A stretch of 63,717 nucleotides of DNA, filler included, from Globobulimina sp. (GCA_003354225.1; 14 parts of 14 records of this genome joined end to end with filler, not necessarily neighbours in it); one strand, 5' to 3'; positions 4,466 to 13,693 are shown, counted from the first letter of the whole stretch. Notes: generated from the sequence alone by a model not told the origin. Translations and numbers: made by a program.

Positions 4466-4565
4466 NNNNNNNNNNNNNNNNNNNNNNNNNNNNNNNNNNN
4501 NNNNNNNNNTTAATTAATTAANNNNNNNNNNNNNNNNNNNNNNNNNNNNNNNNNNNNNNNNNNNN
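4466..4565. other. Artificial contig linker (N44-TTAATTAATTAA-N44), first of 13
   Basis: Identical 100-bp spacers with stops in all six frames at 4466, 9030, 13594, 18157, 22720, 27282, 31840, 36396, 40951, 45506, 50060, 54614 and 59166. Contig lengths never increase along the window (4465 to 4452 bp). Confidence 0.98.
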
Positions 4566-6264: not shown

Positions 6265-8780
6265 TTAAATGTAATCTGTTTGCATCATCTCAACGAACTT
6301 TAATTCTATTTCTTCAAAAGTTGGTCTATTTTGCGGTTCAAATTCCCAACATAGTTTAACTAAATTTTCAAACGATTGATTGCATTTTATTTCAAACCGT
6401 GGCAATTGGCCATTTTCTATGCATTTCCATACTTTCTGTGTTTGTTTTATGTCTGAATATATAATTTTGCCGCAATGTACAAACTCATATAATATATTAC
6501 CAAATGAATATACTTCGGATTTTGTGGTATATTCATATATTTTATCCTTATTTGTCCCAATTGATTCAGGCGCATAATGTCTCGTTGATCCTCTTCTTAC
6601 TTTGTTTGCATTTTCAACGGTCGCACTACATCCAAAATCAATGATAATTATCTCAAATGCATCTAAGCTATAATTATTAAGACGAACCATCAAATTTGAA
6701 ACAGTAAAATCACGATGCATTATTCCAACAACATCATTGATATAATTGCCTGCATTTGCTAATTTTGAAAAAGCATGAAACCAATACTTCGGAATGTGTA
6801 CATGAACATTTTCGTTATACCATGTTTTGAAGTCTTTGTCTATAAATTCTCGCAATGTAAAATCTATATATTCCAATATAAAAAAACATGATTTATTTGT
6901 ATATCCGGCACCAAACATTTTTATAACATTATTATGTCCACAATCTCTGGATAAAGCTAACAATGTTCGCAACTCATTGTGATAACCTTTAAACTGACTG
7001 CCATAATCTTTAATCATCACATATGACTTCAGAGCATATTTACATTGTTTTTTGATCCAAAATATTGGTTCAATGCCGCCTTGCCGGCCTTTTCCTATTT
7101 TATTTTCTTTATATTTCCCTTCAATTTCAAACTCATTCAAATTTGTAATTGGTTTAATATTCATTGTTTTAAATAACTTGACATTATTTCTAATAATCCT
7201 TTTATATCTTTCTTCTTCATTTTGTGTTTGATTACTTTTTTTATCACTAAATTCTCGGTATGTTATTTTGTTTTTTCTATGATATTTTAATACATTTAAA
7301 TCTAAAATTTGCTTTAAATATTCTTCATTTGTTTTATTTACTCCCCTCCGGAATATATTGCGTATTTTTGTGGAACTACACTCTTTTTCTGGTATATTCT
7401 CCATATCAGCATGGCATATAATTAAATTTTCTTTGTATTTCTGAATTGCGTCAAGTTTCTGAAATTCACCAATATCTTTTAAATTATTTCGATTTACAAC
7501 ACATAAAACAGTGCCACACATCACTGCATTTTTGAACTTAGCAATATTATCATCGCCAGTGACCGTGATTAATTTCACTGTGTGGTGTCCAAATTTGTTC
7601 GCTATTAATTCTTTTAAATTTGCTGTTGATTTTGCAGCGCCAACATTTTTATTCTGATTACATAGCCACGAATTAATTATAACCCATTCCATATCTTTGC
7701 ATGCAATTTCACACATTTTTATGCGATGCTTTGCAATCTTTTCAATCTTATTTTTATTTCCATTACATTTCTTAATTAAAGCTGAAAAATGAGTGACTGT
7801 GATAATGACACAAACTATATTATATTTTATATGTTTACGCGATAATAAATATCGTTTTGCTTCGTTGAGTAAAAATATATGATTATTATGTATGGGAAAA
7901 AATGATCCACACATTGAGAGTACAACATTTTCATCACAATTGTTGTTTAACTTCATATCAGCAAACTCATTCAATAATATTTGATTATATTTGTTATTAT
8001 TTGTGCTTGTGAGTGATGGTAATATACATCGGAATGTTTCATTGTGTTTAGTGTTTCCGGAACCAAATAAGCGATCTAATTTAATTCGTTTATCCCACAA
8101 AATTAATTTATTATCCTTCTCATTGCTATCAATGACCAGTGCAAAATATATAATATGATGCATTGGTATGTCACCTCCTTTATCAATGGGTGTCCAATCC
8201 ATTAAATTTATTTCTATGATACAATCTTGCATACGATTGCTGTATCCGATCAATACATTTTGTGCATCAAACCCTAATGTTTTGTCCCATAATAAACGCT
8301 TATAAATATCTAAACTTGTTCGGAGCCTTTTTTTTTTACTTTTTTTATCGTTTGATTTTGCGATGGATGCATGGTCAGTTGTTGTTGTTTGCTGTTTGAT
8401 GAAATTATAAATTTTTTGTAATGTCTCAGTACTGGACTGATGAGCAAATATATAATGTTTTCCATCGTTTGATGTTTGAAATCCGGAGTCTAATAATAAT
8501 TGAATGCAGATTGGAGCATTTGCAAATTTTTTAGATATTTGTTCAACGTTTAATATTTTAAATTTTTGTTTGGTTGGGTTTTTTAAAATATTTTCAATAA
8601 TTAATGGGAATAATTTCAATGTACATGTTGGTTCATTATGATTGCTAAAATGATATGCAATGTGTCAGGCAAAAACGTTTAAAATTAATAGATGTATCCA
8701 TACATTAAATCAGATAGCACTGCTAAATGTTTATCAAGTGATGCGTTACTATCACAAACAATGCTTTTGTTGCTCGCCAT
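6265..8780 (-). CDS. Multidomain protein: PUB-like, MJ1316/DUF504, HIGH-type nucleotidyltransferase (NMNAT-like) and protein kinase
   Basis: First exon MASNKS.. (ATG 8780) spliced through a GT-AG intron of about 8645-8703. PUB-like: IIENILKNPTKQKFKILN..LLDSGF. MJ1316: RLRTSLDIYKRLLWD..IGY..DIPMHHI..LWDKRIKLD. Nucleotidyltransferase: GSFFPIHNNH, VTGDD, SSTKIR. Kinase: GKGRQG, YALK, HRD, DFG, YAPE. Confidence 0.8.
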
Positions 8781-8890: not shown

Positions 8891-9302
8891 TAGCTACATG
8901 TTTAGAGTTAGAATCATTTGGTATTTGTACGGTTGATGGTAGTCGAAATGTATAAATTTAATTACACACAATCAAGAACTCACGTTACTGCATATCACAC
9001 AATTAAGGGATTTATTAAATTAAATTATGNNNNNNNNNNNNNNNNNNNNNNNNNNNNNNNNNNNNNNNNNNNNTTAATTAATTAANNNNNNNNNNNNNNN
9101 NNNNNNNNNNNNNNNNNNNNNNNNNNNNNGTTTGGAACATATTAATTTTAAACACAACTTAAGGTATCAATTTATACACATTTTATTGAAACACCAACAC
9201 AAGAAACAATGAATAAATATATCAACACACGAATGGCACGATGGGAATTCAGGTAGTAATTGATCTGCGTTCCAATACTCAGTATTAAACATCAATAGGA
9301 TT

Positions 9303-9570
9303 GATTTTTTAGTTATTAGTATGTCAATTATATAACATCCCAAGGTAACAAAGTCATCAATGATCATCCATTGATAAACAAATTGATGAATCTCATCAAT
9401 ATGCAGCAAGGCACTATTGACAGGCCGAGGGCGTAGCCCCGAGGTCTGTCAATAGTGCCGAGCTGCATATTGATGAGATTCATCAATTTGTTTATCAATG
9501 GATGATCATTGATGACTTTGTTGCCGAGGGATATTGGTTATATAATTGACATACTAATAACTAAAAAATC
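9303..9570 (+). repeat. Long imperfect palindrome (~130-bp arms) with GTA triloop and GA mismatches
   Basis: 9347-9407 pairs perfectly with 9462-9522 (61 bp). The outer arm 9303-9336 pairs with 9537-9570. The tip is GGGC-GTA-GCCC at 9429-9439. Confidence 0.95.
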
Positions 9571-9584
9571 CATCATTGATCATT

Positions 9585-9660
9585 GATTTGTAACTATGAT
9601 TAATATTTCATTGATGATATAGCCATAATCATTGATGATTCATTGATGATTCATTGATGA
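9585..9660 (+). repeat. Left 76-bp inverted repeat (contains TCATTGATGA x4)
   Basis: GATTTGTAACTATGATTAATATTTCATTGATGATATAGCC...TCATTGATGA; 76/76 to the reverse complement of 12365-12440. Confidence 0.95.
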
Positions 9661-9733
9661 TGAATCCTTGATGATTGTTTCGTTATTTATTGTGATATTG
9701 TGTTTCTTGCCTTCATCTTCAGTCAGCAGCTGC

Positions 9734-9771
9734 AAACGTCAGGTATGATTATGAAAAACGTCAGGTATGAT
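9734..9771 (+). promoter_or_regulatory. 16-bp direct repeat (22-bp period) upstream of the recombinase ATG
   Basis: AAACGTCAGGTATGAT at 9734-9749 and 9756-9771, about 60 bp before ATG 9831; the regulatory role is inferred. Confidence 0.4.
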
Positions 9772-9830
9772 AATTAGTGAAAAACACCGCTTAAGCTCTC
9801 ATCACTATCCGTTGTCCCCAAAGGCACACC

Positions 9831-12254
9831 ATGTCACTCCACAGAAAAAGAGGATCGAGCGTCAAATTGTCGATCTCCAAACTTAACCTAAGTCGCGACG
9901 ACAAAGTTATTAACGCATTCGACGCATTCAGGAAGAATCCGTATACGCATGAAAGTGGACCATATGCTGGATTAAAAGCAGTGAATACAAATATGGTATT
10001 ATTTGAATGGTGGAAAGCCACACCGTTTAATATTCGATTAAACACATTATGTGCTCATATGAGGATATTACGGAAGCGATTAAGTGCCGTGAATTATAAA
10101 AAAGACTCATTTTTAATCGCGGATTTAGAATACGAAGAAGATGACATTATCGATAAAGAAAATGTATATTATACGCATAGTAGCTATTATTCTATGTCAA
10201 CCACAACGTGTGCCGCATTAATAAGAAAGTTTACGGAATGTATTAAAGAATGGCGCTCATTGAATGTCAATGCAGTGGCTACACCTCAATGGGTTACAAA
10301 TATCGACGCACCAAACGTTGACGATAGACGATGGAGTCAATTGACCCAAACTATTGATGATATGAAAAAGATTTGTTTGCGGATTCGTGGGCCTACAAAA
10401 CCCAAATCAAAACCTATGGCATCTAAAGGTACAAAAACGTTTCTCTTTTTTTAAAAAAATATACTAAAAATATACAAAAACATATATACAGATTTAAAAT
10501 CTATACAAGAAGGAGCAGCGAAGAAATATTGGCCGAAAAATGGCGAAAAATGGATACCGAGAAACCTAAATAAATTAAAGATGACTCGTATGATGACAGT
10601 AAGCAGTGAAAGATCAGGAAAACAATGGAGATTACGTACGCAAAACGATCATGAATATGGCACAATGAATGGAGTAAATTATGTAACGGTTTTTGAGCCA
10701 ATTGGCACAAAAACGAACAAAACCGCCGACCAAATACATACACAACGAATGGAAGCACCGAGCATCGATGAAAATGAGTTCAAAACTGGGCTCTATACAG
10801 TGATGAAATTATGTGATAAATTACGTCCTATTTTGGGTATGTTTTAATATGCTTTTTTAGTTTGCAGTATATTTAAATTGATTTTGTACCGTTTCTAAGG
10901 TGTCCATACAACAAAAGAAGTATCAAATGCGTGTTGGTTACGAGCGAAACCATTTATTATTAGTGATAAAGGGAAACAATGCGCCTTCGACAATGCACCA
11001 ATCGGACCGTCGGGATTGCAAAGTATGATGAATGAGATTGCAGACGATTTTGGAGTGCAAAATGTGACATTATATGCTATGAAGAAAACAGTCGCCACGT
11101 TGGCACGTCGAGTTGGTGTAAATCCAGAAACAATTCAAAAAGTTACGCATCACTCAACAATGGAAACAAATAAATATTTTCATAATGAAAATACAAAGTT
11201 GCAGAGTAATAAAGAAATAAATGATATGCAGAATAGAATAATTTATAATAATAATAATAACACAAATTCACATAAGATATCACCCGATATTCCTGTTATT
11301 AAACCACCCATTTTACCACCAACAACAGCATCAAATCTCGCTCCTTATCAACGACCAAATTTATCTCATAATACACCAACAAATTTACCAACAAATACAC
11401 CAACAAATACACCAATAATTATGCCAACAAATTATAATAATCAAGAACAGAAACAATTTATTAGTCAAAATATTCATATTCAAAATAATTTAAATCATTT
11501 ACAGCAAATATGTGCAAATAATAAAAAATATACAAAAACTCATCCGGAGTTTAATCATACATTTGACGTATTGACCAGTGGCAAATATTCGACATGGCAT
11601 AGTAATCCGATATTATTTACAAATAATTATTATAAATTGATTATGAATGGTTCAAAATATAAACATTTATCATATTGTAATGGAACATGTATGCAAAGAT
11701 GTAATGGATACAATGGATTTAAAAATGAATATAATTATTGTAACGGATTAGATTTGAATCAAATTAATGCAATCAATCAAAACAATTTTAATCAAAACAA
11801 TCAAATCAGAAATATTCAACAAGTCGGAACCAATCAAAACACTCAAAATAACACAATTAATTTTAGTCAAAATAATAATAATTTATGTAATCAAAATAAT
11901 CAAATTATTCAAAATAACAATCAACGATTTGGAATCAATCAAAATAATGCAAACAATATAAACACTCAAAACAAAGAAAATAATTTAATATATGGCAATG
12001 TTATAAATAATGGAGGTGTTCATGGCATAAATAATGGATTTAATGGATTTATCAATAATAATCAACCTGCAAATAACAATTTATATGTCAATAAAAATAT
12101 ACTTGATTTAAATAATATAAATACAAATATCAATGGATTTGGTGTAAATAATGGATATACAAATAATAATGGTAATGGTTATGCCAATACCAATGGAAAT
12201 GGTGCTACCTCGCAATGTTCCAATGCGCGTTGGAGCCCATTAAAGAAATATTAA
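9831..12254 (+). CDS. Crypton-type (DUF3504-like) tyrosine recombinase with Asn-rich tail, 3 exons, ~765 aa
   Basis: Exons 9831-10428, 10492-10836 and 10900-12254 join in frame through two 63-bp GT-AG introns. Motifs: LCAHMRILRKR, SKPMASKDLKSI, ERSG (box-I Arg), KTNK, RP, WLRAKP, FDNAPIGPSGLQSMMNEIA, TLYAMKKTVAT, IQKVTHHSTMETNKYF. Confidence 0.75.
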
Positions 12255-12364
12255 TGTTTGACTTTTTATACTTTATTTTTTTATGGGGGTTACTATATAT
12301 TATACTAAAGGTTTTTTGTACTTTTTTGGTTTTTGCGTTTTATAATTTTATCAATGCATATGAT

Positions 12365-12440
12365 TCATCAATGAATCATCAATGAATCATCAATGATTAT
12401 GGCTATATCATCAATGAAATATTAATCATAGTTACAAATC
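12365..12440 (-). repeat. Right 76-bp inverted repeat
   Basis: Exact reverse complement of 9585-9660; followed by TGATCA at 12441-12446. Confidence 0.95.
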
Positions 12441-12722
12441 TGATCAATGGAGGAAACATATGAGTTTGGCAACGTTTTTAATAATACATTCAGTTTCTGT
12501 TCATCTTCGGATAGTTTCTCGTCATCTGAACTGAATTTAAATTTGTGCGGAGCAATAACATTCGCGATTGATTTGCCTTTTTTCCACGACACCTTAAAGT
12601 CCGACAGGGGATATAATAGTGCCAAGGAGGCGGTATCTCTGATAAATCGGTTGTGATTGGCGCTGATTATGCGATAGAAATCAGCGTGGTTCTGATGGAA
12701 CTCTCTGACGAGCCACATCCTA
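12441..12722 (-). mobile_element. Penelope-like retroelement remnant (post-RT linker region)
   Basis: WLVREFHQNHADFYRIISANHNRFIRD..LLYPLSDFKVSWKKGKSIANVIAPHK resembles the PLE segment (FvtxYhp..i..ii.k.w..l..d..lf..p.vayrr.knl.dll) between RT and GIY-YIG; recognised by eye only. Confidence 0.45.
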
Positions 12723-12734
12723 ACCAACGATATT

Positions 12735-13391
12735 ATGCGGGACTTGAACAACAAATCCGTAACCTCGGACGAGTCCACATTGGATTTGTGTAAATATGAT
12801 GATACACCGCCGGACCCAGCCATCATTCCTCCATTTGACCCATTCCATTCCTACCCAATCTCCAACAACACCTCCACCTATGTCCCAACTCAGGCATCCA
12901 TATTGGACATATCCTCCAATCCTATGCTCCCACCAATCATTCAGCCAACAATTTCCCCGGCGATCTCCAACCAACCAACACATCCCGCTCATAGTCGGCA
13001 AACAAGATCCACTCAGTGCCTCAAAGACATTTGTATCACTGACATTAAAATGTCAGACCAAGACCTGCGTAATAAACGTATCAAATTACGCACCATCATT
13101 ACACCACCACCACCAGCTACCAAATCTCGCTCTGAGCCCCGAGCTATCCCAACACCAAAAGTTAATGCTTCCCTCAGAATCAGCCAATTGAAAGCAAAGA
13201 GAAAGCCAAGAAAGCGCCGTGTTTTCCGCAAACCTACGGCACCACAACCAACCGGTTCCCGTATAACAAGAAAGAATTCAAAGTTATCTCAACAGTCTAT
13301 CTCTCAAATAATAGCAGCCAATGAAGCAGAAACAAAAAGGATCAAACAATTGAAAAAGAAACACAAGAAAAAGCAACAAACAAAGAAGTGA
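12735..13391 (+). CDS. Pro-rich / basic hypothetical ORF, possibly element-derived
   Basis: 218-aa ORF, more GC-rich than its flanks, with a K/R-rich C-terminus. Confidence 0.35.
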   Translation: MRDLNNKSVTSDESTLDLCKYDDTPPDPAIIPPFDPFHSYPISNNTSTYVPTQASILDISSNPMLPPIIQPTISPAISNQPTHPAHSRQTRSTQCLKDICITDIKMSDQDLRNKRIKLRTIITPPPPATKSRSEPRAIPTPKVNASLRISQLKAKRKPRKRRVFRKPTAPQPTGSRITRKNSKLSQQSISQIIAANEAETKRIKQLKKKHKKKQQTKK

Positions 13392-13693
13392 ATCCCCATC
13401 GTATCCTGCTTGGCTTTATCTATTCTCATTTCATTTTATCTTATTTTATTCCATTTTATTATTTTGCCCATTCTATATTCAGCAAATTCCGACCATTTCT
13501 TCCCTTCCCAGTTGTTCTCAATTCATGACTGGCTAGGTGTTATTTTCTGGTTTTATTATCAATAATTGTTTTATTTTTATTTTGTATATTCCANNNNNNN
13601 NNNNNNNNNNNNNNNNNNNNNNNNNNNNNNNNNNNNNTTAATTAATTAANNNNNNNNNNNNNNNNNNNNNNNNNNNNNNNNNNNNNNNNNNNN

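Follow-up and report, generated by a model that had tools for sequence, protein, structure and literature searches.

To our knowledge, few eukaryotic DNA elements move by means of a tyrosine recombinase alone, and those that do are poorly understood and have ends that are difficult to delimit. Recombination between inverted sites inverts the DNA lying between them, as is established for Flp and Cre, and Flp acts on a circular plasmid that carries 599-bp repeats. Elements of the Tn916/Tn1549 type are excised as a circle whose joined ends serve as the integration site. Cryptons are described, in a 2011 survey and a further article, as lacking terminal inverted repeats and as having terminal direct repeats of 4-6 bp (PMC3212892, PMC13465315), and DIRS elements are described in the second source as having inverted terminal repeats (PMC13465315). 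The 2011 Crypton survey holds no mention of Rhizaria (PMC3212892), and no description of a tyrosine-recombinase element in Foraminifera or other Rhizaria was found in the full-text literature, as judged mostly by title and abstract. The locus described here is a tyrosine-recombinase gene (9831-12254) that lies between inverted repeats in a 63,717-nucleotide stretch of DNA from Globobulimina sp. (GCA_003354225.1), hereafter called the window, where it occupies a piece of 4464 bp (9130-13593).

The locus is a real, well-defined feature. Among eukaryotic tyrosine-recombinase elements it represents both a new lineage and a new structural variant, with putative activity, and it is likely a mobile or invertible DNA element of a new, recombinase-driven kind. 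Its two perfect arms (9585-9660 and 12365-12440) are 76 nt long and 100% complementary, in agreement with the exact inverted repeats that an earlier note on this DNA had claimed, and the chance expectation of a perfect inverted pair of this length in a 4464-nt piece is approximately 1e-36. The repeats also continue across a 2-nt gap as the note had proposed, with BLAST extending them to 87 and 85 nt (9574-9660 and 12365-12449) at 97.7% identity over 87 columns including the gap. Identity stops sharply at the inner edges (9660/9661 and 12364/12365). The 2.7-kb segment bounded by the repeats contains only the recombinase gene with 170 nt upstream and 110 nt downstream, and no other Pfam domain was found there or in the two flanking open reading frames (ORFs) scanned, at 12699-13388 (plus) and 12425-12850 (minus).

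Both repeats contain short motifs iterated in a single orientation. The motif CATTGATGA occurs four times per repeat, with three of the copies forming perfect 11-nt tandem units, and is accompanied by the outer CATTGATCA. When counted as ATTGAT(G)A, there are five or six copies per repeat in one orientation, three of which have an 11-nt spacing that corresponds to one helical turn. Further copies in the left repeat start at 9609, 9581 and 9574. A 21-nt double iteron has 4 matches versus 0.02 expected from a shuffle control, and CATTGATSA has 17 matches in the window versus 4.7 expected, with 12 of the 17 falling within 9354-12449. The density of ATTGAT per kb is 53-58 in the repeats and 37.8 in an imperfect palindrome adjoining the left repeat, compared with 2.9 in the window and 2.6 inside the gene. 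Because of these densities, the repeats and the palindrome are taken to have a recognition-type motif in common, their sequences being otherwise unrelated.

Whether such a repeat pair could be a chimera of assembly or amplification, in which the left repeat was copied in reverse behind the gene, can be judged in part from Logan contigs (k=31) of three public runs of one sample, whose word length cannot distinguish orientations across a 76-nt repeat. Run X1 contains 90% of the sampled words, and runs X2 and X3 contain next to none of the stretch. Contigs from X1 cover three of the four repeat junctions (9631-9840, matched exactly, 9969-12394 and 12420-12712) and show no differences at them, which argues against a chimera even though X1 may be the source of the assembly. 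In addition, the similarity runs past the perfect 76 nt across the 2-nt indel, the internal iteron structure of the repeat is common to the palindrome, and the outer flanks are mutually unrelated, so that a chimera would need two separate joints. The fragmentation of the assembly into pieces of about 4.4 kb, the very uneven coverage across the three runs and the closeness of 76 nt to common k-mer sizes minus one speak for a chimera, which is nevertheless a very improbable explanation.

The protein was modeled with AlphaFold from a 24-row family alignment consisting of the window protein and 23 database matches, giving a predicted local distance difference test score (pLDDT) of 85.9 and a predicted template modeling score (pTM) of 0.75. 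A Foldseek search with this model against the PDB returned seven matches at E <= 0.001, all seven of which are tyrosine recombinases (Tre/Cre, Tn1549 Int and XerH, with Tn1549 Int at E 5.9e-4). The strongest VIA-align match is Cre (Z 16.5), which aligns over both domains (277 residues, model residues 12-451, root-mean-square deviation 4.5; in all, 277-285 residues over model residues 10-456) and whose N-terminal domain is matched from about residue 10 of the model. It is followed by XerH (Z 13.6), XerA (Z 13.3), IntI4 (Z 12.0), the Crypton-derived QRICH1 (Z 11.3, 143 residues), Tn1549 Int (Z 11.3), lambda Int (Z 9.5), Flp (Z 7.0), the Crypton-derived structure Ndc10 (Z 6.6) and TelA (Z 6.3). 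The family profile likewise finds tyrosine recombinases in 9 of the 11 PDB sequences at E <= 10, the best being XerA (E 0.0027). When the read-through protein was searched as a single sequence against Pfam and the PDB, no recombinase was matched. With the first 99 residues of exon 3 taken in isolation, PF00589 scores E 0.019, below the family cut-off, and the domain matches 5 of the 24 family members with a best E of 4.2e-5. By the fold of the model, the protein is a two-domain Cre-like tyrosine recombinase with a helical core-binding domain and a catalytic domain, so that the recombinase assignment made in the earlier note stands.

In spliced numbering, the predicted catalytic set is R240-K273-Y373-K376-H399-Y407. 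The arginine, the lysine, the late histidine and the nucleophile tyrosine are kept in the window protein and in every row of the alignment that covers those columns. The complete R-H-R-Y tetrad was not found, since the window protein reads R-Y-K-Y with Y373-A-M-K376 at the H-x-x-R position. The histidine of H-x-x-R is a tyrosine in most covering rows (Y-S-x-R), and one row has N-S-I-R. The arginine of this motif is replaced by lysine in three proteins only, namely the window protein and the relatives closest to it, P0002 and P0003. In the profile alignment to XerA, the Y-S-x-R of the family falls on H-x-x-R, and G-H-S...K-Y falls on G-H-x...Y.

The catalytic domain is followed by a tail that the earlier note had described as rich in asparagine, and the composition beyond residue 415 is indeed 27.7% Asn. 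The last 350 residues are not conserved. Inside the tail, positions 11502-11771 encode a less biased island of approximately 90 residues with five cysteines (C-x3-C-x3-C ... C), and the relative P0014 likewise has a cysteine cluster in its tail. The island has no Pfam match and may be a small metal-binding or DNA-binding module.

Relatives of the protein were collected by searching 1.84 billion representatives exhaustively with phmmer, with residues 1-456 of the read-through protein as the query and a cut-off of E <= 0.001. The 23 matches include 15 at E <= 1e-10 and 2 at E <= 1e-30. The origins of ten of them were examined, comprising six EukProt foraminiferal transcriptome sequences (one from Bolivina argentea and five from Nonionella stella), one NCBI contig and three ENA contigs. 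These matches indicate a tiny recombinase family that is known so far only from Foraminifera. A word-indexed protein search with the catalytic part gave 15 candidates, none at E <= 0.01, and the same type of search with the family profile recovered only P0018. Viral contigs yielded neither a family relative nor an iteron array. The best match is P0002, a 519-aa protein from a Bolivina transcript with 44% identity over aligned residues 6-455. Language-model look-alikes of P0002, which are leads only, include diatom clusters, a cnidarian DUF3504/QRICH1 cluster and an oomycete cluster with the core-binding domain. Ten family members align only or mainly to the exon 1 region of the window gene. 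The genomic copy at locus L001, which encodes P0003, is truncated and has 45% protein identity to the window protein, with 70% DNA identity over 296 nt to window positions 10905-11197. Its neighbours are a GRAM/VASt gene on one side and, on the other, a 508-codon ORF of no clear family; a pterin dehydratase gene is also nearby.

The claim that three ORFs are fused by two 63-nt GT-AG introns into a frame of approximately 765 aa is borne out, with the spliced frame of the gene comprising 765 codons plus a stop. That the gene contains two GT-AG introns rests on homologues and sequence features only. Both intron-coded stretches are missing from the proteins derived from transcripts of Bolivina argentea and Nonionella stella, and P0002 shows an exact gap at each. 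None of the 23 other rows of the family alignment has residues opposite the intron 1 stretch, and P0003 at L001 has a longer, unspliced insertion where intron 2 falls. Several family fragments derived from genomic sequence end just past the conserved K-x-K-P-M that precedes intron 1. The pLDDT drops exactly at the intron-coded stretches, to 44 at intron 1 and 54-63 at intron 2, and the GC content of the exons is 0.28-0.38 versus 0.17 and 0.24 for the introns.

The alternative is that there are no introns and that TAA is read as an amino acid, so that the frame is one continuous ORF. Both interruptions are multiples of three in length and all three in-frame stops within them are TAA, as this explanation would require. 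However, the terminal stop of the gene is also TAA, many long ORFs in the window, including one of 799 codons, are open under the standard code, and short introns elsewhere in the window hold TGA and TAG as well. The GT..AG ends and low GC content (0.17-0.24) of both stretches, their absence from homologues and the low-confidence modeling there likewise speak against it. An X1 contig differs at 10852 by a C-to-T change and one extra T in a T-run of intron 2, which lengthens the intron to 64 nt and would shift the frame if the stretch were coding. Reassignment of TAA is consequently scarcely credible and was rejected.

The region between the left repeat and the gene contains a 16-nt direct repeat, AAACGTCAGGTATGAT, at 9734-9749 and 9756-9771. 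The copies are 22 nt apart and lie approximately 60-100 nt upstream of the start codon, and an X1 variant contig has small insertions at 9732 and 9736, right at this repeat, which may be a promoter element.

Table 1. Positions of the features at the recombinase locus and of one truncated relative (window coordinates unless noted)
Feature	Position	Strand	Description
Imperfect 290-bp palindrome (foldback repeat)	9291-9581	.	GC-rich centre near 9432-9437; 11 ATTGAT/ATCAAT hexamers
Left inverted repeat	9574-9660	+	Perfect over 9585-9660; outer CATTGATCA at 9574-9582, past the 2-nt indel
Left tandem iterons	9629-9661	+	Three 11-nt units TCATTGATGAT at the inner end; TRF period 11, 3.0 copies, 100%
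Three ORFs in one frame	9795-10454, 10455-10847, 10899-12254	+	ORF scan
Exon 1	9831-10428	+	Residues 1-199 plus base 1 of codon 200; helical N-terminal domain of core-binding type
Intron 1	10429-10491	+	63 nt, GT..AG, GC 0.17, one in-frame TAA
Exon 2	10492-10836	+	First half of catalytic domain; Arg240 (SERSG), Lys273 (GTKTNK)
Intron 2	10837-10899	+	63 nt, GT..AG, GC 0.24, two in-frame TAA
Exon 3	10900-12254	+	Second half of catalytic domain (Tyr373, Lys376, His399, Tyr407) and 350-aa Asn-rich tail; TAA at 12252-12254
Right tandem iterons	12360-12396	-	TRF period 11, 3.4 copies, 96%
Right inverted repeat	12365-12449	-	Perfect over 12365-12440; outer TGATCAATG at 12441-12449
Relative at locus L001	5751-6659 of 9074-bp locus		5'-truncated; read-through residues 253-463 only, no exon 1 equivalent

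The X1 contigs also provide information on variants of the locus, with depths that are sums over look-alike contigs and not copy numbers. The gene interior is represented by one 2427-nt contig with a depth of 9.7, compared with 3.6-6.1 for the flanks, and this contig carries three 50:50 single-base variants near the 5' end (9841, 9954 and 9968), a pattern compatible with two near-identical copies or alleles. Repeat-like ends seem to exist elsewhere, because one outer-repeat variant, which lacks 1 nt at 9590, has a word depth of 39 of 68 in X1 and one further X1 contig tracks the repeat to 9617 and then diverges. On the left flank, the only X1 contig (698 nt, 9130-9284, depth 6.1, one mismatch at 9249) stops matching before the palindrome and continues with 110 letters unlike the window. 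This departure could reflect another allele, an empty site or, given the multicopy palindrome, an assembly path that is uncertain there. The k=31 contigs contain no joint by which the element is skipped. The two joints that are reported, a foldback in a palindrome variant (X3) and a 38-nt step back in a PT-repeat coding region, are unrelated to excision or inversion.

The palindrome itself lies approximately 250 nt upstream of the gene start. Its arms are 91% complementary at 9334-9431/9438-9535 and 97% at 9299-9336/9537-9574, and BLAST aligns 9299-9580 with 9574-9291 at 88.9%. Folded as single-stranded DNA, the palindrome reaches -144 kcal/mol (z = -29 versus 100 shuffles). The earlier note had placed a hairpin 15 bp outside the left repeat and treated it as an integral part of a single element. 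The hairpin is real and does abut the left repeat, but it ends 10 nt before the perfect repeat rather than 15, and it overlaps the extended repeat. Its inclusion in one element is not supported by the contigs. The X1 word depth over the palindrome bins is 231 and 95 versus 9.7 for the gene, with at least three variants, and contigs leave the window sequence at the palindrome edges, at 9581 (X1) and 9291 (X3). Because of the high summed depth, the variants and these loose ends, the palindrome looks like a separate multicopy repeat of approximately 290 bp. It is probably a more abundant foldback repeat with its own boundaries near 9291 and 9581, and probably also a non-autonomous relative, located at the left end or inserted there. 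A telomere-resolvase reading, in which a recombinase-like enzyme would act on the adjacent palindromic site to produce hairpin ends, was set aside for now on account of the low TelA score (Z 6.3) and of the seemingly multicopy and variable nature of the palindrome.

The earlier note had proposed recent activity, with excision at a TGATCA/TT core or flipping of the gene as candidate modes. The preferred explanation, which has roughly an even chance of being correct, is that the nuclear genome of the foraminifer carries here a new DNA element that encodes a recombinase and ends in inverted repeats bearing iterons. The recombinase would bind the iterons, pair both ends and exchange strands through Tyr407. 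Crossover within the identical repeats would invert the 2.7-kb segment, and such exchange would keep the repeats identical. Alternatively, cleavage at the outer ends in the manner of Tn916/Tn1549 would excise the segment as a circle, whose joined ends, TGATCAATG-spacer-CATTGATCA, would make up a classical two-arm recombinase site able to integrate elsewhere.

A rival explanation is a fixed site-specific inversion cassette of the Flp/FRT kind instead of a transposon, which would flip its own 2.7-kb segment and keep its repeats identical in doing so. Identical sites in inverted orientation around a recombinase gene, with identity that ends abruptly at the inner edges, are what such a cassette would look like. 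The whole gene lies inside the segment together with its upstream 170 nt and downstream 110 nt, so that flipping alters no obvious coding or promoter junction. Furthermore, Flp matches the model less closely (Z 7.0) than Cre or Xer does, the unique flanks and lack of terminal overlap suggest that the piece is not a small plasmid, and the outer repeat sequence seems to be present elsewhere. A transposon is favored over inversion because of this apparent presence of the outer repeat elsewhere and because inversion would alter no obvious junction; the fixed cassette is considered unlikely.

Several observations weigh against an active mobile element. No target-site duplication or short terminal direct repeat was found at 9574 and 12449. 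Neither the window nor the k=31 contigs, which are blind to inversion across a 76-nt repeat, showed a second full copy, an empty site, a circle junction or an inverted form; the other 13 pieces of the window hold no related DNA or protein. The repeat-bounded architecture is absent from the one related locus examined (0 of 1), the truncated copy at L001 beside ordinary host genes, where no flanking inverted repeats (the best of 23 pairs being 39 nt at 72%) and no motif cluster were found. The lysine in place of the second catalytic arginine may reduce or abolish strand exchange. Expression of the family in two foraminifera and the kept intron positions fit a host gene family as well as they fit a transposon. 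Finally, the summed nature of the contig depths and the very uneven coverage of the three runs lessen the weight of the contig data.

In the main rival explanation, the gene is a domesticated, recombinase-derived host gene (e.g. a DNA-binding regulator) that performs no strand exchange, and the repeats are relics or present binding sites. The change of arginine to lysine in H-x-x-R is common to the window protein, P0002 and P0003 of L001, which have 44-51% identity, and the first histidine is a tyrosine in most covering rows. The full-length transcripts in two foraminifera, the conserved intron positions and the situation of L001 among ordinary host genes without repeats would be expected of a host gene. 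Lysine is, on the other hand, the most conservative substitute for arginine, and some type IB topoisomerases with lysine at this position keep partial activity. The nucleophile tyrosine, the first arginine, the lysine and the late histidine are all kept, and run X1 seems to hold the outer repeat sequence in other contexts too. If the repeats were relics, identity at 76 of 76 positions would be surprising beside a palindrome whose arms are only 89-91% alike. Precedents point both ways: Crypton-type recombinases have been domesticated repeatedly, and domesticated DUF3504 proteins have lost most of the tetrad, unlike the protein here, according to the 2011 survey (PMC3212892). Domestication is accordingly rated as improbable, yet it is the alternative that has to be taken most seriously.

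A more far-reaching version of the preferred transposon explanation would make the locus an autonomous member of an undescribed superfamily of tyrosine-recombinase transposons restricted to Foraminifera, with long inverted repeats of 11-nt iterons and a natural Tyr/Lys variant of H-x-x-R, which also mobilizes the 290-bp ATTGAT foldback elements. This proposal is rather doubtful. If it were true, the autonomous element and the foldback elements would be a tyrosine-recombinase counterpart of the partnership between transposases and miniature inverted-repeat transposable elements. More generally, long iteron-bearing inverted ends together with an intact gene would provide a defined substrate-enzyme pair for excision, integration and inversion. 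The system could show whether lysine replaces the second catalytic arginine in a working recombinase, and a compact Cre-like enzyme with its own site would be of interest to builders of recombination tools. If the gene is domesticated instead, it would add a further independent case of recombinase domestication beyond animals and fungi.

The window consists of 14 separate pieces arranged in descending order of size from 4465 to 4452 bp and joined by N44-TTAATTAATTAA-N44 linkers, which are located at 4466-4565, at 9030-9129 and then every ~4.56 kb. The pieces look like whole contigs from a fragmented assembly. A gene on one piece is no neighbour of a gene on another, and DNA before 9130 or after 13593 does not adjoin the recombinase locus. 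The flanks of the piece that carries the locus are unique within the window, and the piece has no terminal direct or inverted overlap. No tRNA genes or Rfam families occur in it, and there is thus no sign of tRNA-targeted integration. Its right flank has overlapping ORFs on opposite strands at 12422-12850 (minus) and 12696-13391 (plus), neither with a Pfam match. The minus-strand ORF enters the right repeat and ends within it, and given this overlap the element may have landed in or beside a gene.

The other pieces of the window hold ordinary eukaryotic genes (kinase, C-type lectin, Kelch, RGS, arginase and mitochondrial carrier), and the mitochondrial carrier shares 83% identity with its counterpart in the foraminifer Ammonia and 64% with one in Reticulomyxa filosa, which identifies the host as a foraminifer. 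The GT-AG introns of these genes are approximately 50-70 nt in length and contain TGA, TAA and TAG. The 799-codon ORF is intronless, is located at 6268-8664 (minus) and encodes an unusual fusion of PUB, MJ1316, cytidylyltransferase-like and protein kinase domains.

Among the described systems, Cryptons resemble the locus in being eukaryotic DNA elements with a tyrosine recombinase as the sole protein and a gene that can carry introns. The label 'Crypton-like' used in the earlier note applies in this loose sense of a eukaryotic element that encodes a recombinase alone, and not in its particulars. The locus has inverted repeats of 76-87 nt, whereas Cryptons as described in the sources cited above are without them, and no counterpart of their 4-6 bp terminal direct repeats was found at the locus. 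DUF3504 (PF12012, CryptonA) matches none of the 24 family members at E <= 0.1, and GCR1_C (CryptonF) has no match at E <= 1. The tetrad reads R-Y-K-Y rather than the R-H-R-Y of Cryptons, and the Crypton-derived structures QRICH1 (Z 11.3) and Ndc10 (Z 6.6) fit the model less well than Cre. By the structural definition and by the sequence comparisons made, which covered DUF3504 (CryptonA) and GCR1_C (CryptonF), the locus is not a textbook Crypton.

DIRS, Ngaro and VIPER elements are also eukaryotic elements with a tyrosine recombinase, but they encode reverse transcriptase and RNase H and have an internal complementary region or split direct repeats, whereas the segment here holds a recombinase gene only. 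The locus is not a DIRS-type retroelement, because neither a reverse transcriptase nor an RNase H domain turned up among the scanned ORFs of the 4464-bp piece. The Flp/FRT system of the yeast 2-micron plasmid is similar in pairing a eukaryotic tyrosine recombinase gene with identical inverted repeats that the enzyme could flip. The unique flanks of the piece, the absence of circular overlap and the weak match to Flp (Z 7.0) suggest that the locus is not a 2-micron-like plasmid. Tn916 and Tn1549 likewise have a recombinase gene inside an element that ends in inverted repeats, and Tn1549 Int is a clear structural match (Z 11.3). They differ in being conjugative elements of bacteria that carry Xis and transfer genes and end in short, imperfect repeats, none of which is present at the locus.

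Cre/loxP and the Xer recombinases provide the best structural matches, which extend over both domains, and the model shows no extra arm-binding domain. The sequence identity to these proteins is only about 8-16%, and the locus differs from them in its eukaryotic host, its introns and its 350-aa Asn-rich tail. The tyrosine and lysine of the window protein replace the histidine and arginine of H-x-x-R in Cre and Xer. Cre acts on one 34-bp two-arm site, whereas the putative sites at the locus are arrays of 11-nt iterons.

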